Of a stretch of 62,769 nucleotides of DNA, positions 1 through 62,769 are shown piece after piece. Position 1 is the first letter of the stretch, and the number at the start of each line of letters is the position of its first letter. The position numbers were made by a program, and so were the translations under genes. The stretch comes from a virus. The stretch lies in the IMG/VR virus record IMGVR_UViG_3300050128_000007. One strand, given 5' to 3'. The notes under the pieces were generated by a model that was not told the DNA's origin, searched no databases, and was given only the letters and a program-made list of their open reading frames with translations.

Positions 1-127
1 GCCGAATACCGCGAGCGACGGAAGGCCGTCAATCACGACCCCTGCGCTTAGGGTAAGCAATGACGGCATGAAGAAAGCCGGAGCCGCAGTAGTGAGTACG
101 GTGATGCCAGCGCCCGTGGTGCTAACC
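1..127. repeat. Exact 127-bp terminal overlap with 62643..62769 (circular closure of the contig)
   Basis: Compared base by base. 1..127 equals 62643..62769, and the sequence diverges after position 127. Confidence 0.95.
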
Positions 128-7577: not shown

Positions 7578-8998
7578 CTAATATCCGGTAATTTCGGAAC
7601 GTCCCTGATCGCTACCTTCACTATTGCTGATCGAAGGCCAATCATCCTGCACCGCAGATGATCCTTGCGTAAGCGCGGGCGCGAATAACGATGCGGCACC
7701 ATACTCTAACGCATTCATAATATGGGAAAAACCAAACTTATCAGGGCGTTGGGCATACCGTTCCGGTCCAGCAACCTGGATGCGCCGCAGATTATAGCCC
7801 CCCAAAAAGCCCTTGCGAATAGTCAGGCACCGAGGATGCAAAATAAATTGTGGTTCTCCACCAATGATCGTACGCAGTGGTTTGCGCACCGATTCCATGC
7901 GGAGCACAGGGTCTTGCTCACTTGGCTGAATGTCGATGCCTTTGGTAGCCGCCATCTCGAATATGGTTCGCTTGTCGATCTGCGCGCGCTGCTGGCCCGC
8001 TGGGTCACCCCAATCTTCAAATTGCGCGTCGCCGCGGAACGAGCGCCGACAATGCTCCAACACGTCGTCAAGAAATTGATCGACGCCCATATTCTTCGAC
8101 GTCATTTCATCGAACACCAACCAGCGGCCATCGGGTAGGAGTTGCGAGAAACAGCACGCTGGGGTGAGCCCCCAGTCGAACGAACGCATAATTGGCCGTC
8201 CCGGAACTGGATCAACCTCGCGGCGATGAAGCTGGTCACTGTATTCGTCATAGACCGGCTTGCCATCGACAACAAAGCCGTACTCGCCGTGGATGTAAAC
8301 CTTGACCCATTCTGGCTTTTTGCCCTCGGCTAATAGCTTGTAATAGTTCGGGTTTGTCAGGTTCGGGATGTTCTCCGCGTTCGGCCCGAGACCGGACGGC
8401 TGCTTGAATAGTTCGGCAAACCACTTCGGATGCTGCTTCTCCTCGAAAAAGCGATACCAATCCGAATCCTGGTCGGGTGGATTGGTGTCCATGAACAGCC
8501 CCGCCCATGTGCAGCCGCCCATTGCCTTCGTCGGATATTGCTCGATACGGCCTTGGATAGCGTCAACGATGGCCCACGGAATCTCTCGCGCCTCGTTGAT
8601 CCATGCGCCGGTGATTTCGAGAGACAGTAGGTTGGCAATGTCGTCTGGCTTATCGAGGGCGCGGAATAGAATCTCAAACTCGCACTTCTCAAAACCTTTA
8701 ACGACGTAGCGATTATCGGTCTGGTAGTAGCGGCCGAAGTGCTGCGGCGGCAGCCACATATGCACCGTGCGAATCGTCGTGTCGGAAAGCTCGCGATAGG
8801 TGCTGCGTACAACAAGCCAGCGCGTGCGGCGTATTCCGTCTATCCCCGGCTTCTGTGCGAGCGCGCGCCGGACTATTTCAACGACGCACCCCGATGACTT
8901 TCCCGAACGAAAGGGCCGGATAGCCCACGAACGCGGGCATTGCTGGCCGCGAACTCCCTGACTGTCGGAACGTGGGCGTAGCTGTAGCGAATGTCCAT
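7578..8998 (-). CDS. terL: Terminase large subunit, read in two frames (frame change at 8909..8915)
   Basis: ATG 8998 shares one base with the upstream stop (TGATG). It encodes MDIRYSYAHVPTVREFAASNARVRGLSGPF and that frame stops at 8873..8875. The -1 frame continues RSGKSSGCVVEIV, giving Walker A GPFRSGKS, then Walker B-like ITGAWINEA and a nuclease-type C-terminus. Confidence 0.8.
8909..8915 (-). other. C_CCU_UUC heptamer (X_XXY_YYZ) at the terL frame junction
   Basis: In the 0 frame the codons are GGC CCT TTC GTT. Slipping back one base gives CCC TTT CGT TCG GGA AAG. Confidence 0.6.
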
Positions 8999-9249
8999 CA
9001 CGACCTCCCGAGCGTCGCAAAATCAACCTTGGCCACATGACGCGAGCAGGCCGGACGGTCCCTATGGATGCGCGGGACGAAAGCCTCGATCGCGAATCCT
9101 GGACGCCCGAGCACGTCCTGTGTGGCCCCAAGATTCATCACGGTAGGCGGCTCGCCGTAGCAATCGGCTAAGTCCTTGGCGTCAAACTTCTGTGCGTATC
9201 GGCAGGAGCCGCACTTCGGAAACGTCACATTGACGATCTTGTCGTTCAT
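8998..9249 (-). CDS. Hypothetical Cys-containing protein (83 aa)
   Basis: The ORF lies directly upstream of terL. Confidence 0.6.
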   Translation of the reverse strand: MNDKIVNVTFPKCGSCRYAQKFDAKDLADCYGEPPTVMNLGATQDVLGRPGFAIEAFVPRIHRDRPACSRHVAKVDFATLGRS

Positions 9250-11170: not shown

Positions 11171-11632
11171 TTACGCCACCTTGTCCGGTTCCGCAATCGC
11201 CTCGATGGTCTTCATCGGCTTTGGGCCTGGCGCAGCCTCAATCACAAACCGAACCGTAGAGTTGAGGTGGCCCGAGAGATTAACATCCGCCTGCTCGCGC
11301 CAGCCCATGCGGGCCTTTGTCCACCAGATCATCGCCGTCACGTTCTTGGATTCGGTCGCGAGTTTGTAGAGTGCGGAAACTATGGCCGTGTTCGCCTTGG
11401 CCACTCCCTTATCAAGCTCATCGCGGAAGCGTAGCCGTAGGGTTTTATCGTCGATCCGCTGCCCGGTAGCCTGATTGACGACGAGGCGCGCAATTTCCTC
11501 GTGCCGGATGCCGAAGCCCGCCATTGCCTCGACCTGATCGCGCTGTTCCTTCGTAGGGGCGAATGGCGCTGGTCCTCGACGCTTTTTAATTCGAGGTGGG
11601 GGAGAGTTTTGTACCTTCGTGCCTGTAGCCAT
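11171..11632 (-). CDS. terS: Terminase small subunit (putative)
   Basis: First gene of the late operon. It has an HTH-like MAGFGIRHEEIARLV and a C-terminal IWWTKARMGWRE motif typical of small terminases. Confidence 0.6.
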   Translation of the reverse strand: MATGTKVQNSPPPRIKKRRGPAPFAPTKEQRDQVEAMAGFGIRHEEIARLVVNQATGQRIDDKTLRLRFRDELDKGVAKANTAIVSALYKLATESKNVTAMIWWTKARMGWREQADVNLSGHLNSTVRFVIEAAPGPKPMKTIEAIAEPDKVA

Positions 11633-11642
11633 GTGGAAATTG

Positions 11643-11669
11643 GTTTCAGAAAGTTTCAGGAGGTTTCAG
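11643..11669. promoter_or_regulatory. Three GTTTCAG repeats at an exact 10-bp period, just upstream of the late operon start
   Basis: Copies at 11643, 11653 and 11663. The third extends to GGTTTCAGACT, which is also found at 15447..15457. Confidence 0.5.
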
Positions 11670-11717
11670 ACTCTACTGGCCATATTACACGGAATAGGCG
11701 GTCCACAAAGAGTAAAT

Positions 11718-11741
11718 CGGCGGAGCAATAAAGCTCCGCCG
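11718..11741. terminator. Perfect 9-bp stem hairpin CGGCGGAGC-AATAAA-GCTCCGCCG
   Basis: Read directly. A weak T-rich tail follows on the minus strand. It lies between the control region and terS. Confidence 0.4.
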
Positions 11742-11926
11742 ACTCAATGGGTTACGGGTGTAGCAAGGTGCTCGGGTCGGTAGTGTCTCAGTTTGAATTT
11801 AGAGGTCAATGACCCGGCTGATTAGTGGCGGTCGGCGCCGTCCCCGCCAAAGTTTGCAAGCGCGGGGCTATCGTAACTAGGGCGCCCATTATAGTCAGAG
11901 AAGCGATGACGACCGCCACAATGCGT

Positions 11927-12018
11927 GTGACGCATGTGACGGGTTCTTTCGGTATCCCCGTTAGGCGCGCACGCGCGCGCGTGGCGCCGATAACGAAAAC
12001 ATCCGTCACATGCGTCAC
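11927..12018. repeat. 92-bp imperfect palindrome with 16-bp perfect outer arms GTGACGCATGTGACGG / CCGTCACATGCGTCAC
   Basis: Paired position by position. The centre is CACGCGCGCGCGTG. The region holds only implausible ORFs. Confidence 0.85.
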
Positions 12019-12282
12019 GGCGTTGATTTCATTGGCATTCATTCAGGGGTCCATCGGCTACAGATCCATCTCGGTGCGGCCGCTACCGCCCTGCCGGAGC
12101 GCAAGGCCGCGAAAGCCGCGTCCGCCGTGGTCGCGATAATTGATGAAGCCGCGGCTCGCGAGAATCCCTTTGTCGGCAGATGGTCTACTCGGACTTCAAG
12201 GCGCGTCGCGCGGCGGCGGCAGGCTTTTGCGGTTGCTGGGCTTTTGCCGTCGGTTCGGCCACGGGTCATCCGCAGAATGCAT

Positions 12283-12343
12283 TATAGTTCATGCGCTATA
12301 ATCGGAATTATGCACTTGACAAACCGAAACCGCATGAACTATA
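12283..12343. promoter_or_regulatory. 13-bp perfect inverted repeat TATAGTTCATGCG / CGCATGAACTATA bracketing a promoter
   Basis: Arms at 12283..12295 and 12331..12343. The right arm overlaps the -10 element. Confidence 0.5.
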
Positions 12344-12345
12344 GT
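12316..12345 (+). promoter_or_regulatory. Sigma70-like promoter TTGACA-N18-TATAGT
   Basis: -35 at 12316..12321 and -10 at 12340..12345. The ATG at 12353 lies about 7 nt downstream, so the transcript may be leaderless. Confidence 0.45.
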
Positions 12346-12352
12346 TCCGGTC

Positions 12353-13300
12353 ATGGGAGCCGGTAACATGAACCTGTCAGAGATTTCAAGCCTCACCGAG
12401 GATCAAGCCCGCGAGTATTTCGAGAAAACCCGCTGGCCGAATGGTCGGGTTTGCCCCCATTGCGGATCGGTCGAAAGCACGAAGCTACGGGGCAAGGCTC
12501 ACCGCGTCGGGCTGTATAAGTGTTCGGGCTGCGATGGCCAGTTTACGGCGACCATCAACACGATTTTGGAGGATAGCCACCTCCCGATCCGAACGTGGCT
12601 GATGGCTTTCTCGATCCTGTGTTCGGCGAAAAAGGGCGTCAGTGCCCTCCAATTACAGCGCCAGCTTGGCCTAGGGAGCTACCGAAGCGCATGGCATTTG
12701 GCGCACCGGATTAGGCACGCGATGGCCCGCGAGCCATTGAAGGGCCTCTTAGGCGTCGGCGGCGGCACTGTCGAGGCGGACGAAACATGGGTCGGCGGCA
12801 AGCCCCGCAAGCGCGCTAGCAAGCGCGTTGCCGGTGCCAGCCGCGAACGTCCCGTTCCCACGAAAACCCGCGTGGTCGGGCTTGTGGAGCGCGGCGGTAG
12901 GGCGCGTGCGCACGTCATCCCCGATTTGACCGCGCCAACATTGAAGGCGGCGGTTCGGGCGCACGTCGATCCCAGCGCACGACTGATGACGGACGAAAAT
13001 CACGCCTATTTCGGGCTCGGCAGCGAGTTCGCCGGTGGGCATGAGGTCGTCAATCACAGCGCGTATGAGTACGCGCGCGGCGACGCGACGACCAACACGG
13101 TCGAAGGGTTTTTCGGTCTGTTCAAGCGCGGTGTGATGGGTAGTTTCCATCACATCAGCGAAAAGCACATGGACCGTTACTTGAACGAATTTTCGTTCCG
13201 ATGGGACTTGCGGAAAGTAACAGACGGTGAGCGCACCGTTGAAGCGATCAAAGCCGCAGAAGGCAAGCGGTTGATGTATCGCGTGCCAGTAGGGAACTAG
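12353..13300 (+). CDS. IS1595-family (ISXO2-like) DDE transposase homologue, copy 1
   Basis: N-terminal zinc ribbon CPHCG...CSGC. Catalytic-type motifs ADETWVGG, TDENHAY and NTVEGFFGLFKR. An alternative start is at 12368. Confidence 0.8.
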   Translation: MGAGNMNLSEISSLTEDQAREYFEKTRWPNGRVCPHCGSVESTKLRGKAHRVGLYKCSGCDGQFTATINTILEDSHLPIRTWLMAFSILCSAKKGVSALQLQRQLGLGSYRSAWHLAHRIRHAMAREPLKGLLGVGGGTVEADETWVGGKPRKRASKRVAGASRERPVPTKTRVVGLVERGGRARAHVIPDLTAPTLKAAVRAHVDPSARLMTDENHAYFGLGSEFAGGHEVVNHSAYEYARGDATTNTVEGFFGLFKRGVMGSFHHISEKHMDRYLNEFSFRWDLRKVTDGERTVEAIKAAEGKRLMYRVPVGN

Positions 13301-13344
13301 CGCCCGGATTCACAAGGCGTTTTCAATGTGATACGGGCGAGGGA

Positions 13345-13442
13345 TGCGGTAGACCGGATTCGAACCGATAAGGGGCTTGTCCGTTGAAGGGGCTCCCACC
13401 CGGTTCCAAACCGGGCGCGTCTGCCAATTTCGCCACTACCGC
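13345..13442 (-). tRNA. Class-II (long variable region) tRNA-like gene with anticodon loop UUUGGAA (UGG); isotype uncertain
   Basis: Perfect 7-bp acceptor stem GCGGUAG/CUACCGC. Leu-type D arm GCGAAAUUGGCAGACGC. Anticodon stem CCCGG/CCGGG. T arm AUCGG-UUCGAAU-CCGGU. Discriminator A. No encoded CCA. Confidence 0.7.
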
Positions 13443-13503
13443 GTGGTGACGCCGCTCGGTCGGTATTCGGTCCACAGCCGAACCCGTACCGAGCGGCGCC
13501 GGT

Positions 13504-13525
13504 TTTCCTAGGCGCGCCTAGGAAA
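13504..13525. repeat. Perfect 22-bp palindrome TTTCCTAGGCGCGCCTAGGAAA abutting the stop codon of gene 13526..13948
   Basis: Read directly. A second long hairpin (10-bp arms GCCGCTCGGT/ACCGAGCGGC) lies at 13451..13497. Confidence 0.8.
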
Positions 13526-13948
13526 TCATTCAGCGGCGCGCTGATGCTCTGCCGCTCTACTCTCGACCAGAAACCACTTTCCTTCCTTGTTTTTATACGC
13601 ACCGGCCTTACGGCCTCGGTCGAGCGCAAATCGAATACCGGAATAAGAAACCGACTTTTCCGCCGGCGTGACCGCCGATTCATGGATTTCAAGGGCACCA
13701 GCGCCTTTCATTCGACGCTCGGTAAGAACGCGCCTGATAAGACTATCAACGGCTCCATTCGGAGCTCGTCGAGCCGCCTGCGTCACCCGCACTCGCCGCA
13801 ACGGAGTTTTTTTGATAGTCTCTGCAACTGCATCGCCTTGGGCGGCTTGCATGATTCTAGTGATTGCGTCGCGGTCGCCGCGCGCGTATTCAGCAGCGAA
13901 AAGCCGCCTGATTTGTTGCAGAAGTTCCTCTAATTCGGTGTTGGCCAT
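13526..13948 (-). CDS. Putative DNA-binding regulator (140 aa, winged-helix-like C-terminus)
   Basis: The promoter region carries the palindrome at 13985..14003. The function is inferred only. Confidence 0.45.
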   Translation of the reverse strand: MANTELEELLQQIRRLFAAEYARGDRDAITRIMQAAQGDAVAETIKKTPLRRVRVTQAARRAPNGAVDSLIRRVLTERRMKGAGALEIHESAVTPAEKSVSYSGIRFALDRGRKAGAYKNKEGKWFLVESRAAEHQRAAE

Positions 13949-15556: not shown

Positions 15557-15937
15557 GTGGATAAGTCAGGAGTACGCACCATGATTTCGAGGAAGATGCG
15601 AGATGTTTTGATTGACCATCTGGACGGACGTGAGGTTCCTATAATTCATGCAACTGAGGCTTCCGGAATGGAAGCGCGCGACCTGGCATTGAAGCAGCAT
15701 ACCACGTCTGCACTCCTACACCGCAGATTGCTAAAGATCGACGGCAAGTTACCCCCACGCACAACGACAATCACTGAAAGCGGGCGCTCGGAACTCTGCC
15801 GCGCCCTCGCCGATTGGGCCGATGCGTTAGCCCGAGCCGATGATAGAGCGGATTGGTTCGTCACTGGAGCCACGGCAGCCCACAATCGCCCAGACGTGAC
15901 CGTGGATGCGTCTTTGGCTCCGAAGGTCCCGACATAG
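15557..15937 (+). CDS. Hypothetical protein (126 aa)
   Basis: An isolated plus-strand ORF with a GTG start. An alternative ATG lies a few codons downstream. Confidence 0.5.
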   Translation: MDKSGVRTMISRKMRDVLIDHLDGREVPIIHATEASGMEARDLALKQHTTSALLHRRLLKIDGKLPPRTTTITESGRSELCRALADWADALARADDRADWFVTGATAAHNRPDVTVDASLAPKVPT

Positions 15938-15951
15938 CAGCCAAGGCTGAT

Positions 15952-16116
15952 TTATCGCCCACGGCGCATCTCCTCCTCGGTAAGCGGCATACCAACTAGC
16001 CCATAGATGCCAGCCTTAAAGGCTTCGTATTGCGCTACCAGCATGAAGCCGGCGCGCACCGCCGCATCACGTCTGGGGACGCCCAAGTTCCCGCGCACGA
16101 GCTGTTCAGTGGTCAT
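15952..16116 (-). CDS. Small hypothetical protein (54 aa; below the ORF-track cutoff)
   Basis: ATGA overlap with the stop of the upstream gene (16113..16116). Translated by hand. Confidence 0.45.
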   Translation of the reverse strand: MTTEQLVRGNLGVPRRDAAVRAGFMLVAQYEAFKAGIYGLVGMPLTEEEMRRGR

Positions 16117-16616
16117 ATCTCACGCTCCGTCCGGAAAGACTCCCTCGGCCGGCTTGCGTCTGCGTTCGGCGACTTCCAGGTCTTCGGCAGCCGCGTGACG
16201 CATTGCTGAAAGGCGGAAAGTGCGACGTGGATGCCGGCGCGGCCTTCGAGCCAATCGCGTGGATCCGCCTCGCCGCTTTCCTTCCACGCCAGGACCGCTT
16301 GATATTGCGGCGCGTCGATGGGGACAAACACATTCGCCCGACAGCCGGGGAAGTTCTCTGGCGGCACATAGTCGCGGTTAAGATTCGGCTTCGGGCTGGC
16401 ATGCGCCGCGCGCCACTGTCTCGCTCCTTCAGCTTCGCACGCGTCTCGCACTTCCTTGACGCTCGGCAAAAATCCAATCTTGCTCGGGATACCGGTGCGC
16501 GGGTCGGTGACGACATCGACAACGGTCTGGACATATTCGCCGAGCACGCTCGCGATCGCAGCGCAGTAGATTTCAGGATTTGCCGCCTCGTCCCTCCGGT
16601 AGCAGGCGAACATCAT
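16113..16616 (-). CDS. Hypothetical protein (167 aa from ATG 16616; the ORF is open from 16751)
   Basis: The long version would overlap the upstream gene by 178 nt, so the internal MMFACYRRDE start is preferred. Confidence 0.5.
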   Translation of the reverse strand: MMFACYRRDEAANPEIYCAAIASVLGEYVQTVVDVVTDPRTGIPSKIGFLPSVKEVRDACEAEGARQWRAAHASPKPNLNRDYVPPENFPGCRANVFVPIDAPQYQAVLAWKESGEADPRDWLEGRAGIHVALSAFQQCVTRLPKTWKSPNADASRPRESFRTEREI

Positions 16617-39754: not shown

Positions 39755-40993
39755 CTAAAATTCGAAAGCTGTGCAGTTCAGATTGAGTGCGGTTGCAGTG
39801 CCGCCGCCATTGGCCGCGAGATAGAGATCAAACCAGTATGCAGTGCCAGGGGTCAGTCCGGTGATGATGCCGCCTGATGTAAAAGGAATGCGCGGATTGG
39901 CATTGGCCGATTGGGCAATGGACGAAATCGGGCCGTTCACCGCAGTGCCAGTTACCGATACGCCGTTGCCCGGTGCCGTGCTGGTCCCGTAATAGGCCGT
40001 GAAAACGCCGCCATCGGCGGCCGCGCTGCTTCCAATGTCGCCGATGAACCAAATCTGGACGCGAGTGCTGTAGGTCGGCGTAAGCTTGCAAGTGCCGCCG
40101 AGACCCATCATCACGCCGGTTGTATTCGTGGTGCCGGTCGGATTGCTCGGCGAAGCCTGCAGCGTCGCGCTGTTATAGAGATTAAGCGTTCCGGAAGCTG
40201 CTGGGAGCGTGATCGTATAGGCCGTCGCGCTGGCGTTTGCGCTGGTGAACGTCGTGCAGCCGGTCGAGGAGCCGAGGATGCACAGATCACTATTGTTGAA
40301 GGTCTTGAGCGCCGTAAAGGTTTCCGCCAGTCCCAAGAGGCTGAGCGTGCCGCTCGCAGCTGGGGCGGTAAGCGTGTAGTTGGTTGCGCTTGCATTCGCG
40401 CTTGCAAACGTCGTTATGCCGGATGAGCTGCCTGGGATGGCGAAGTTGACCGTGACGCCGAAACCGGCCGCGCTGACCGCAATGTCGGTCCCGGCGATGA
40501 TCGAGAGTGAACCTGTCAGACCGTTCAAGGAGGAGACGCCGGCCACGCCCGATGACACCACGGAGGAAATGGTCGCCTTCTGGATCGCTCCGGCCGCAGC
40601 CGAGTAAACGATCAGGTAGTCGTTATTGCCGACAATGCTGCTGTCGTTGGTCAGTCCGGTAATCGTGGTCGGGCTGGCACCGAGGCTCGTCGGCGACAGG
40701 ACGCCGAAGCTGAGCGTGCCCGATAAATTGATAGCCCCGGCGATGGTGCCGTAGGTCGATCCCAACGTCATCGTGGTGGAGCCGAGCGTCACCGTCGCCA
40801 CGGAATAAGCCGCAGCGCCGAGCGCGCCGGAGCCGCAGATTGGCGTATTGCCGGAACCGTTGCCAAGGATTGGATAGTTCGCGCCGCAAGTAGAGAGCGT
40901 CAGCCCTTGCAAATAAGGTGTCGTGGTCAGCGGCGAAGCACTCGCCGAAATCAGCAATGCAAATAGTGCGATAATTGAAAGGAGATAGCGCAT
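39755..40993 (-). CDS. Tail fibre-like protein with an N-terminal Sec signal peptide (412 aa)
   Basis: ATG 40993 checked. MRYLLSIIALFALLISASA|SP. Internal repeat (F/T)SANASAT.YT.T.PAASGTL. Beta-rich C-terminal domain. Cys residues occur in pairs. Confidence 0.65.
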   Translation of the reverse strand: MRYLLSIIALFALLISASASPLTTTPYLQGLTLSTCGANYPILGNGSGNTPICGSGALGAAAYSVATVTLGSTTMTLGSTYGTIAGAINLSGTLSFGVLSPTSLGASPTTITGLTNDSSIVGNNDYLIVYSAAAGAIQKATISSVVSSGVAGVSSLNGLTGSLSIIAGTDIAVSAAGFGVTVNFAIPGSSSGITTFASANASATNYTLTAPAASGTLSLLGLAETFTALKTFNNSDLCILGSSTGCTTFTSANASATAYTITLPAASGTLNLYNSATLQASPSNPTGTTNTTGVMMGLGGTCKLTPTYSTRVQIWFIGDIGSSAAADGGVFTAYYGTSTAPGNGVSVTGTAVNGPISSIAQSANANPRIPFTSGGIITGLTPGTAYWFDLYLAANGGGTATALNLNCTAFEF

Positions 40994-41006
40994 TATGCTC
41001 TGTCTT

Positions 41007-42830
41007 TCAGTTCGAGATTTCGAGTGTGAGTTCACTGTCATAATTCCCGTACCAGTCCGGTCCATCGAAAGTTGATGGTGCGGTACCGGCCTCAACGGCT
41101 TGATAGAATGTGAAACCGAGGCCGGTGTAGTTGAGGGCGACAACGCACATCGAGCCTTGGTCTGCCGCCGTATATGACCCCTGACAGAGATTGCCGTTGG
41201 TGACTGCGGGCGTGCTGATGCAGTTGACACAGATGCCCGGTGAACCAGCCTGAGGCCCAGTGCTCGTGCCGTAGCTCATAGTCATGTATTCGACTAGGCG
41301 CACTTGAGAAAGGCCGAGCCCGTCGACCACGGATATGCGGTTGCCGGTGGAATTGTTCTCCGGCCGCCATGTGGGGCTGCCGTAAGGCCACTGCGAAGCA
41401 CCTTCGCGCTCGATCGCCTGCACGTTGACGCGGTTGTAAGCGTTGTAGAGACAGACGCAGTTGTTAGTGCCTCCGCTGGCCGGCGCGGGGTTTAGATTCC
41501 ATGATGTCGTGCTAGTCGCGGACGCATAGAACGTGCCGAGATAGGTTGCATTCCCGGCCGTGATTGAACTGGCGATCGTGCTACCGTTATTCGCGCAGGT
41601 CGCGATCGTGCTTGCGTTGGTAAAGTAACCATTCGCTCCTTGCGCGATGCCGTCCGCCCGCGTCGAAGCATTCGTCCATGGGTTGACGTCGTAGCAGAGC
41701 GCAGCGCTGCCTGAGCTTACGACCGCAAAGATGTCGTACAGGTTGGTCGCCACCGCATTCGTCGGCGTCAACGTCAGCGTCGCGAACGAATACCCGGTGC
41801 CGCTAATCGGGATGGATGCGGTTGCATAGGGGACGTAGCAAATCACCGCTGCGGAAACGACCGAGTTATTCTGAACTGGCGATGCACCGGAGCAACTACT
41901 CGCCTGCGCTACGAGCCGCCCACCTGGCTGGCCAATGACAGGCGGCGTTGCTGAAATCGTCTGTCCCACAATCGAAAGGCCGGTACCGAGCAGTACCGTA
42001 CCAGTAGCCCCACCAATCGACGATACACCGGTGAATACCGATGGCGCGGCCCATTTCATTTCGACTTGCTGGACATTGGCCGGGATGTTGGCGTCGAACG
42101 TGACGACGCCAGCGGCGAGGCTCCATGTATTCTGCGCTTGCGCGATGCCGTCGAAATAGATCGTGAGCTGGACTGCCGCTGTCGGCAGCGGTGTGTTGGT
42201 GATGGTCAGCGTGTCGACGGCGCCCGGAGAGGCAAAAATCTGGTCGCCGAGGCTAGCGCCACCACCGCCGCAAACGACGCCAGTGCCGCTAACTACGCCC
42301 GAGGTATTTGCCTGCAGGCATTGCGTCGAGCCAATGACACCGGAGAGCGTAAGATCATTAGCCGCGATGGTCAGACCGGCACCATTCGTAGTGACGCCGG
42401 AAATGCCACCGAAAAGGCCGTTAGTATTGTACTGGACTTGGGTGTTGATGCCGCCGGGCGTCCCGCCTCCGCTCCCGGATAGCCCGCTATAGACCGGATC
42501 AGCCGTCCAGATTTGATTGAATAAGGAATCCGTCAGGACGACCTTGTAATTGCCGTTAAGGAAAATGTTGGGGAAAACGCCGGCGGCGCTTGCGACCACA
42601 GGATTCGTATTCGGCACTGACAACAACGCATCAGAATAGGTCGTTAGCGGCGTATTGGTGCCAGAGGAATAGAAATACAAGAGCGCGCCGGGAATCGGGA
42701 CGCCGTTGCTGTCAACTACCGTCTGATATGGCAGCACGAACCGCGGCCCGAGCGGTACGGTTTGCGCCAACGCCGGCAGCGACGCAGCGAGCAAAAGGAT
42801 GAGGGCGACTAAAGACTTTTTGAAGTTCAT
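41007..42830 (-). CDS. Tail fibre protein with an N-terminal Sec signal peptide (607 aa)
   Basis: MNFKKSLVALILLLAASLPALA|Q, then a typical fibre N-domain (GVPIPGALLYFYSSGTNTPLTTYSD...NPVVASAAGVFPNIFL..YKVVLTD). There are many Cys pairs. Confidence 0.7.
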   Translation of the reverse strand: MNFKKSLVALILLLAASLPALAQTVPLGPRFVLPYQTVVDSNGVPIPGALLYFYSSGTNTPLTTYSDALLSVPNTNPVVASAAGVFPNIFLNGNYKVVLTDSLFNQIWTADPVYSGLSGSGGGTPGGINTQVQYNTNGLFGGISGVTTNGAGLTIAANDLTLSGVIGSTQCLQANTSGVVSGTGVVCGGGGASLGDQIFASPGAVDTLTITNTPLPTAAVQLTIYFDGIAQAQNTWSLAAGVVTFDANIPANVQQVEMKWAAPSVFTGVSSIGGATGTVLLGTGLSIVGQTISATPPVIGQPGGRLVAQASSCSGASPVQNNSVVSAAVICYVPYATASIPISGTGYSFATLTLTPTNAVATNLYDIFAVVSSGSAALCYDVNPWTNASTRADGIAQGANGYFTNASTIATCANNGSTIASSITAGNATYLGTFYASATSTTSWNLNPAPASGGTNNCVCLYNAYNRVNVQAIEREGASQWPYGSPTWRPENNSTGNRISVVDGLGLSQVRLVEYMTMSYGTSTGPQAGSPGICVNCISTPAVTNGNLCQGSYTAADQGSMCVVALNYTGLGFTFYQAVEAGTAPSTFDGPDWYGNYDSELTLEISN

Positions 42831-62123: not shown

Positions 62124-62769
62124 TTAGACCTGCGGCTGACCGAACAGCCCCGTCGTCGGGTTTGTGACGAGCGCTCCCATCGCCGGCGTCGTTCCCATAA
62201 CCAAGCGTTTGGTGCCGTCTGACGCCGACTGCGTGGCATAGGTTCCGCGCACATCGCCGAGCAAATTAGTGGATGGGACGGTCGTTACCGCTGCCGTGTA
62301 TCCGGTATTAGCCGTGATGGCCGTGCTATTCCAATTAATCCAAGTCTCACCGAAATAGCTGGAAACAATCCCGAAACCGTAGAGGTCGGCGGTCCCCACC
62401 GAATAGTTGTGTGTATCGGTGAATTGCGGCGTCACGGATGCGATAGCCTTGAAGGTCTTCAAGGTATTCACCGTATTTGCCCCGGCCGCCACCGTGACGC
62501 TCTGCGTCATCGGATAGCCGTAGATGTCATAGCCAGAGACGATGAATATGCCGCCAGCGCCTCCGCTCACCCCAGAGATCGAGACACCGCGCCCGACATA
62601 AGTCGAGCGGCTGTAAAAGCCGGTCTGGAAATTGCCGCCAGAGCCGAATACCGCGAGCGACGGAAGGCCGTCAATCACGACCCCTGCGCTTAGGGTAAGC
62701 AATGACGGCATGAAGAAAGCCGGAGCCGCAGTAGTGAGTACGGTGATGCCAGCGCCCGTGGTGCTAACC
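62124..62769 (-). CDS. C-terminal part of the junction-spanning structural gene (see 1..420)
   Basis: The frame is open to the window end and continuous with 420..1 once the 127-bp overlap is removed. Confidence 0.7.
   Translation of the reverse strand, partial: VSTTGAGITVLTTAAPAFFMPSLLTLSAGVVIDGLPSLAVFGSGGNFQTGFYSRSTYVGRGVSISGVSGGAGGIFIVSGYDIYGYPMTQSVTVAAGANTVNTLKTFKAIASVTPQFTDTHNYSVGTADLYGFGIVSSYFGETWINWNSTAITANTGYTAAVTTVPSTNLLGDVRGTYATQSASDGTKRLVMGTTPAMGALVTNPTTGLFGQPQV
62643..62769. repeat. Second copy of the 127-bp terminal overlap
   Basis: Identical to 1..127. Confidence 0.95.

Follow-up and report, generated by a model that had tools for sequence, protein, structure and literature searches.

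Introduction

How does a phage make its packaging ATPase when the gene for it is divided between two reading frames inside the ATP-binding loop? The question is raised by IMG/VR record IMGVR_UViG_3300050128_000007, a viral DNA of 62,769 nucleotides (nt), referred to below as the window, which means the whole stretch analysed. On its minus strand, the gene for the terminase large subunit (terL, product TerL) changes frame at a C_CCU_UUC heptamer within the Walker A motif. Frameshifting in tailed phages is textbook material for tail assembly chaperones and a few capsid genes, where it yields two useful proteins. In the window, an essential motor enzyme encoded by a single gene copy would be obtained solely through a frameshift, and the shift would fall inside the ATP-binding loop.

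A first-pass annotation of the window had offered two explanations: either the -1 frameshift is programmed, or the assembly or the genome lacks a base. The comparisons described below argue for the first: three lineages carry the heptamer, the changes among close variants are synonymous only, and the fused protein is 100% identical to that of the closest unshifted relative (L170) over nearly its whole length. We therefore consider it likely that terL is decoded by an obligatory, evolutionarily maintained -1 ribosomal frameshift. The site is real and conserved and is probably functional, and a known mechanism would operate there in a new setting.

The divided gene and its product

When base 8909 is read twice, the two segments of terL join into a protein of 473 amino acids (aa) with the Walker A sequence GPFRSGKS, which is present only in this fused product. 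The -1 frame continues for 443 codons beyond the junction to a stop codon at 7578-7580, and the product made without a shift is a 41-aa peptide. The fused protein matches the terminase profiles phrog_2 (1.6e-22) and phrog_3717 (5.6e-10) in alignments that begin at residue 10-18 and both cross the junction; the match to Pfam Terminase_3 is weak (19.5 bits, under its 23.2 cut-off). The gene sits upstream of the portal gene, and by these profile matches the fused product is a phage TerL. No second terminase was found among 20 open reading frames (ORFs) of the window, 239-1,098 aa long, including all 16 phage ORFs of at least 300 aa.

Among 5,356 homologues recovered by protein search, the 120 best are mostly single ORFs of ~470-480 aa with the same N-terminus in frame with the P-loop, and their Walker A motif reads GPFRSGKS in 49 cases and GPFGSGKS in 33. 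More than 100 homologues join this N-terminus to the P-loop within one ORF, of ~472-478 aa, so the window is one base short relative to the family. All that the first-pass annotation had read from the letters about the split was borne out, including its description of the -1 frame upstream of the junction as shadow sequence: no homologue matches there, whereas frame 0 does match. Gene callers truncate the shifted TerL to 393-412 aa without the P-loop, and such truncated calls affect phage classification based on terL.

The missing base can be placed with the help of L170, an ENA scaffold with 95.6% nucleotide identity in terL. L170 reads GGA CCG TTT CGT TCG GGA AAG where the window reads GG- CCC TTT CGT TCG GGA AAG, which locates the missing base in the Gly28/Pro29 codons. 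It had been suggested that an extra G would restore the frame and give GPFGSGKS; this location and the GPFRSGKS motif of the nearest relatives speak against that proposal. The -1 fusion and the L170 protein are 100% identical over residues 2-456 (455 residues), with 44 synonymous and 0 non-synonymous codon differences, and they diverge only in the C-terminal tail. Identity extends to the frame-0 segment, in which residues 2-30 are the same despite 14 nt differences in the first 86 nt.

Occurrence in independent assemblies

The site, CCC TTT, consists of two short homopolymers, and a base could have been dropped from this short C/T run during sequencing or assembly. The same sequence is nevertheless found in at least six assemblies of this phage and at least six of other lineages, obtained with different pipelines. 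Five loci show 100% identity with the window across 2,301 nt; they lie on three contigs (L163/L166, L164/L167 and L168), which derive from JGI samples 3300050136 and 3300037168 and Logan run SRR35930654. A further contig is 99.8% identical (L165), and two are ~98% variants (L008 and L171). In all, six contigs from the JGI, Logan and ENA pipelines carry the shift, 8 public contigs have the exact 41-aa frame-0 stub as a called gene, and the shift of the other two lineages introduced below is likewise seen in at least six assemblies.

No 1-nt indels occur in the ~6.4-kb alignment of the window with L008, and none other than the missing base appeared over kilobases of pairwise comparison. Runs of three bases would also not be expected to be error-prone in short-read de Bruijn assembly. 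The ends of the window (1-127 and 62643-62769) are identical over exactly 127 bp, a length that suggests a short-read de Bruijn assembly with k=127; with this overlap, the window is a complete genome of 62,642 bp, circular or circularly permuted. An artefact thus has next to no chance of being the explanation, and on these comparisons the base is genuinely missing from the genome relative to its relatives. Of the two places where a base might have been lost, the genome stood up to the comparison, and the assembly did not survive the agreement among independent JGI, ENA and Logan data.

Conservation of the heptamer in diverged lineages

The shift recurs in two further lineages whose TerL proteins are ~80-88% identical to that of the window. 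The first, L002 from IMG/VR, has ~75% nucleotide identity in terL and ~80% identity in TerL. Its site reads GGC CCT TTC GTA GTG GGA AAA, its stub is 62 aa long and is also present in an independent ENA contig, and its fused TerL is intact at 471 aa. The second lineage (P0122; L176-L179) was found by a search with the 41-aa stub and is represented by five Logan/ENA contigs with a 46-aa stub; the site reads GGC CCT TTC GTA GCG GAA AGT, and the fused TerL is again intact, at 474 aa. A P0039 contig, on which a 38-aa stub precedes a truncated TerL, may belong to a fourth shifted lineage. Another candidate for a truncated TerL, P0037/L175, was dismissed when it proved to be in frame with a GTG start missed by the gene caller.

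The 11-mer GGCCCTTTCGT is invariant at the same codons in the three shifted lineages, and adjacent synonymous sites vary. The wobble bases of Gly28 and Pro29, which are free as far as coding is concerned, are the only ones that complete a perfect heptamer. Of 109 distinct unshifted relatives, 14% have GGC and 9% CCT at these codons, and none has a sequence that lies one deletion away from the heptamer. In-phase X_XXY_YYZ heptamers occupy only 0.27% of codon positions in the long ORFs of this genome.

Wider searches returned few shifted sequences. A GenBank phage nucleotide search gave no match. Degenerate scans of IMG/VR, JGI metagenomes and GTDB (NARxRG...GKSSG) recovered many in-frame relatives and L002 as the sole shifted one; other matches with a 20-nt spacer in these scans were set aside as chance occurrences outside terL. 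A heptamer-specific scan of IMG/VR again gave only L002. It had been argued earlier that an extra base in related terL genes, restoring a single frame, would count against frameshifting. Most relatives are indeed single-frame and carry the extra base, but the refutation fails as the shifted state is conserved.

These lineages also bear on whether TerL could be made without any frameshift, either by initiation ahead of the junction in the -1 frame or in a form that lacks its N-terminus. The former route had been proposed for ATG 9038 or TTG 9131, and in the window the -1 frame is open to 9131. Such a protein would, however, have the conserved 27-residue N-terminus replaced by overlap-frame sequence and the first Gly of Walker A replaced by Arg. 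In the other lineages, moreover, the route is closed: L002 has a -1-frame TAG two codons ahead of the Pro codon, and the L176 lineage has a -1-frame stop 11 codons upstream of it; neither interval contains an ATG, GTG or TTG. Initiation at later codons would sacrifice the P-loop lysine. Taken together, synthesis of TerL from another start is highly improbable.

Selection and history of the shifted allele

A frame break in an essential gene also raises the possibility that terL was recently inactivated in defective or plasmid-like prophages, which would package no DNA or use a helper terminase and in which any remaining constraint would be inherited or imported. The relaxed constraint expected of a pseudogene was not seen. 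Between the window and L008, all 30 terL differences are synonymous in the -1 frame, including CGC/AGG and TCC/AGT swaps, and the same applies to 4 of 4 differences from L165 and 25 of 25 from L171; the exception to this pattern is a deletion in L008, considered below. The ratio of non-synonymous to synonymous substitution (dN/dS) is 0.05-0.09 among the shifted lineages and 0.05-0.07 among unshifted pairs. By these measures, both frame segments are under purifying selection.

Part of the synonymous divergence has been acquired by recombination. Twenty of the 30 differences from L008, all of them synonymous, cluster in a 64-nt tract at 8826-8763, across which L008 matches L170 and the window and L165 share a divergent version; by this pattern, 8763-8826 is a recombination patch from a diverged terL. 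Frequent recombination with functional alleles, seen as mosaic tracts, could import synonymous-only differences into an inactive gene. The 10 scattered differences outside the tract are nevertheless all synonymous as well.

Recombination has also left its mark on the history of the shift. In neighbour-joining analysis of the first 90 nt, the three shifted alleles form a clade with 82% bootstrap support, or 56% without the Gly-Pro-Phe codons, and the nearest 5' neighbour of each shifted allele is another shifted allele. In the remaining terL, the shifted alleles never group (0%); there, the window lies with the unshifted L170, L176 near L010 and L002 with L152. A shifted 5' cassette probably arose once, as a minority derived state, and then recombined onto different terL backbones, a mosaic pattern that fits the RecE- and RecT-like recombinase genes of this genome (19356-21343). 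The alternative is a recurrent origin at the same nucleotide. Either history argues that the allele is viable.

Predicted translation of terL

The slippage itself is predicted from the sequence. To obtain G-P-F-R, the frame must change between the Gly codon, which is in frame 0, and the Arg codon, which is in frame -1. Ribosomes would start at ATG 8998, which follows a strong ribosome-binding site and would be coupled to the gene before it, and would read 30 codons in frame 0. At the heptamer, the P-site tRNA-Pro on CCU and the A-site tRNA-Phe on UUC would slip back onto CCC and UUU; the outcome would not differ if only the P-site tRNA-Pro slipped. The slipped fraction would then continue at CGU in the -1 frame to yield the normal 473-aa TerL with an intact GPFRSGKS motif, and ribosomes that do not slip would stop after 41 residues and release a useless peptide. 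The frame-0 tail that ends this peptide is probably a by-product, since its length and sequence vary by lineage, giving products of 41, 46 and 62 aa. In Escherichia coli, U_UU.C ranks second among A-site motifs for slippage, and heptamers of pyrimidines alone are prone to frameshifting (PMC4066793).

The initiation region of the window differs from that of L170. On the minus strand, GTGATGG contains both the TGA stop of the upstream 83-aa gene (9000..8998) and the terL ATG (8998..8996), which share base 8998 (TGATG); this one-base overlap suggests translational coupling of terL to the 83-aa gene. L170 has an additional 107-aa gene with no family match (L170:709-1032) between the 83-aa gene and terL, and its terL begins with GTG behind a weaker ribosome-binding site. 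This gene is precisely absent in the window, where terL takes over its ATG and GGGAGG. The stronger initiation in the window could offset a low rate of slippage, an observation that remains anecdotal. The frameshift may serve to limit the dose of TerL, it may be merely tolerated, or the indel itself may be useful.

Arguments against a maintained frameshift

A number of observations weigh against decoding of terL by a maintained frameshift, the first of them concerning efficiency. A stimulatory RNA structure 5-9 nt downstream of the heptamer, for which the first-pass annotation had advised a search, was not found. The 50-80 nt downstream fold no better than shuffled sequences (z -1.0 to +1.7), in a search that did not cover pseudoknots, and unshifted alleles have downstream folding energies equal to those of the shifted ones. 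The only hairpin common to the shifted sequences (RNAalifold, four sequences) begins 15 nt past the heptamer. Upstream, no conserved Shine-Dalgarno-like element was found, and the sequence there differs between lineages. Slippage is thus probably inefficient: in E. coli reporters without a stimulator, heptamers raised frameshifting 2-10x over a background of ~0.05% (PMC4066793), values by which far fewer than 1% of initiations could end in TerL. Such efficiency may be acceptable if the phage requires little of the enzyme. Ribosome collision at the 0-frame stop was also weighed and rejected, on the grounds that the position of this stop differs between lineages (41, 46 and 62 codons).

Further points concern the distribution of the allele and the state of the genomes that carry it. 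The shifted state is rare, with 115 of 117 loci with a recognisable N-terminus being in frame in one IMG/VR scan, and support for a single origin of the cassette is moderate, as it comes from only 90 nt. The window carries an IS1595/ISXO2-type DDE transposase (12353-13300, plus strand; Pfam 9.5e-41), an element more in keeping with prolonged residence in a host than with a strictly lytic life. Finally, L008 (JGI 3300037096) has an extra 35-nt deletion in terL (window 8416-8450; L008:4116/4117), suggestive of decay in one genome at least. Its two lesions together remove 36 nt, yet frame-0 stops fall between them, and L008 may be a defective variant.

The second lesion of L008, the transposase and the lack of a detected stimulator are also what an inactivated terL would lead one to expect. 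Such a gene would, however, carry its lesion at one and the same nucleotide across three lineages whose TerL proteins are only 80-88% identical and, except in L008, would have suffered no other frame break; a random lesion would meet a perfect in-phase heptamer ~0.3% of the time. Frequent recombination should also soon replace a dead allele, whereas the 5' cassette sits on three backbones. Across the rest of the 62.6-kb genome, the large ORFs are intact. In view of these points, recent inactivation appears improbable, and an obligatory -1 frameshift remains the preferred reading.

Other routes to recoding

The frame change could in principle be brought about by something other than ordinary ribosomal slippage, such as RNA polymerase slippage or a special tRNA. 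Transcriptional slippage typically needs runs of 7 or more bases, and the runs here are only C3 and T3. The genome does contain a tRNA-like gene of 98 nt (13345-13442, minus strand), detected by Rfam at 52.7 bits and missed by ARAGORN. Its anticodon loop, UUUGGAA, gives the anticodon UGG, which reads Pro codons (CCN); position 37 is A instead of G. The variable region holds a 27-nt insertion resembling that of class II tRNAs, and the intron option of ARAGORN calls the gene tRNA-Ser(GGA). The anticodon UGG would read the Pro codon of the heptamer, its P-site codon, and the tRNA is absent from the two unshifted relatives examined, L173 and L174.

The gene may nevertheless be a passenger: the IS1595-type transposase lies 45 nt away, and the block of ~11260-13800 that surrounds both has no counterpart in the syntenic region of L173 and L174, by which comparison it is an insertion in this lineage. 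No exact copy of the anticodon arm was found in IMG/VR, and no precedent is known that ties such a tRNA to -1 shifts. We consider recoding by polymerase slippage or a dedicated tRNA to be very unlikely.

Comparison with known recoding systems

Tail assembly chaperones of the lambda G/GT type and E. coli dnaX likewise rely on a -1 slip at an in-phase X_XXY_YYZ motif with tandem re-pairing. These systems make two useful products in a fixed ratio, with the shift near the end of the short ORF. In terL, by contrast, only the shifted product can be useful, and slippage would take place at codon 30, within a catalytic motif. In addition, dnaX has a Shine-Dalgarno-like element and a hairpin, whereas terL has no detected stimulator. 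The requirement for a trans-frame product is shared with prfB, which encodes RF2, and with IS3/IS911 transposases, in which the functional protein is also made only across frames and its amount is set by the efficiency of the shift. The prfB shift is +1 and autoregulated at a stop codon, and the IS elements use A_AAA_AAG-type motifs with strong stimulators.

A further parallel is compensatory, or corrective, frameshifting on so-called savior indels, exemplified by G-run mutants of the herpes simplex virus thymidine kinase (Atkins et al., 2016; PMC5009743). As proposed for terL, these mutants have an indel in an important gene, a low-level slip that supplies the product, an unshifted product that is useless and perhaps a benefit from the indel itself. 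The herpes simplex cases are drug-selected clinical mutants on a homopolymer run, whereas the terL cases are diverged natural lineages with a canonical heptamer.

Recoding of terL has been discussed before. In Streptomyces phage Hau3, bypassing was proposed for terL, in 3 of 100 related terL genes, as a means of regulating terminase supply (PMC10732093). There too, full-length TerL requires recoding, in a small minority of related terL genes; the Hau3-type genes contain 7-10-nt non-coding inserts that follow rare UUA codons and are hopped over, whereas in the present terL one base is missing and a -1 slip would restore the frame. Alignment to the unshifted relatives revealed no inserted block of the kind that forms the bypassing gap in T4 gene 60 or Hau3. 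A -1 shift was also speculated for the split terL of Microbacterium prophage vB_MoxS-R1 and Gordonia phage Nyceirae (PMC9030533). Both cases come from single genomes that lack a canonical heptamer, and neither has support from comparison or selection; the comparative evidence assembled here, from three lineages, many assemblies and synonymous-only change, is stronger than for the earlier split terL genes. Our literature search found no documented -1 frameshift and no conserved canonical heptamer in the P-loop of terL. If confirmed, the present case would add a new gene class and an obligatory, stimulator-free shift logic to bacterial and phage recoding, and it would show how little TerL a phage needs.

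A possible link to homing elements

Some relatives point to a reason for which the indel itself could be useful. In P0014, P0019, P0077 and L001 (620-800), an intein-like insert of ~307 aa lies between R31 and S32 of the TerL Walker A motif. This insert (CLSGDTEF...FVTGN|S) starts with Cys, ends with Asn followed by Ser and contains a LAGLIDADG-like sequence, FAVMMHADG; sequence searches of Pfam, NCBIfam and PDB did not identify it as an intein. Other family members have inserts elsewhere, with Pfam LAGLIDADG_3 or Hint_2 matches. The insertion point lies one codon downstream of the heptamer, and the missing base is 7-9 nt away from it. Imprecise loss of an intein was considered as the origin of the deletion and rejected on account of this distance.

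Protection from a homing endonuclease is the proposed origin of the bypass in T4 gene 60 (PMC5009743). By analogy, the one-base deletion could be an adaptive savior indel that protects against invasion by a homing endonuclease or intein. The missing base would put the two halves of an endonuclease target, in its putative unshifted form GGACCGTTTCGTTCGGGAAAG, out of register and thus confer immunity to cleavage during co-infection. The heptamer would supply enough TerL, so that the immune 5' cassette would spread by recombination onto different backbones. This proposal is weakened by the consideration that synonymous changes could in principle give the same immunity, and we regard it as doubtful. 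If the frameshift is confirmed, terL would offer a simple system in which to test indels combined with slippage as a defence against homing endonucleases.

In the unshifted relative L173, a group I intron (15928-16200; Rfam, 67 bits) is found just ahead of the major capsid gene, next to a gene for a GIY-YIG endonuclease. It adds to the evidence for a phage group rich in homing elements.

Features of the locus and genome

The positions of the elements discussed above are collected in Table 1.

Table 1. Elements of the terL locus in the window, with positions on the 62,769-nt sequence.
Feature	Position	Strand	Remarks
83-aa upstream gene, function unknown	8998..9249	-	TGA stop 9000..8998; identical protein on 20 public contigs
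Shine-Dalgarno-like GGGAGG	9004..9009	-	5 nt upstream of the terL ATG
terL codons 1-30, frame 0, MDIRYSYAHVPTVREFAASNARVRGLSGPF	8909..8998	-	Conserved TerL N-terminus through the first three Walker A residues
Slippery heptamer C_CCT_TTC (putative)	8915..8909	-	X_XXY_YYZ phase; CCT and TTC are the 0-frame codons
Walker A / P-loop GPFRSGKS	8895..8917	-	G28, P29 and F30 in frame 0; R31 to S35 in frame -1
Frame-0 tail VRESHRGASLK and TAG stop (8875..8873)	8873..8908	-	Read-through past the heptamer
terL codons 31-473, frame -1, RSGKSSGCVVEIV...	7578..8909	-	Rest of the ATPase domain and C-terminal domain

Beyond this locus, coding density is high and intact ORFs reach 1,098 aa; the portal, capsid and other large genes are intact. 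Two ORFs on the same strand, 39755-41230 and 41007-42830 (minus; 491 and 607 aa), overlap by 223 nt. This overlap may reflect a mechanical choice of start codon, or it may be another frame junction.

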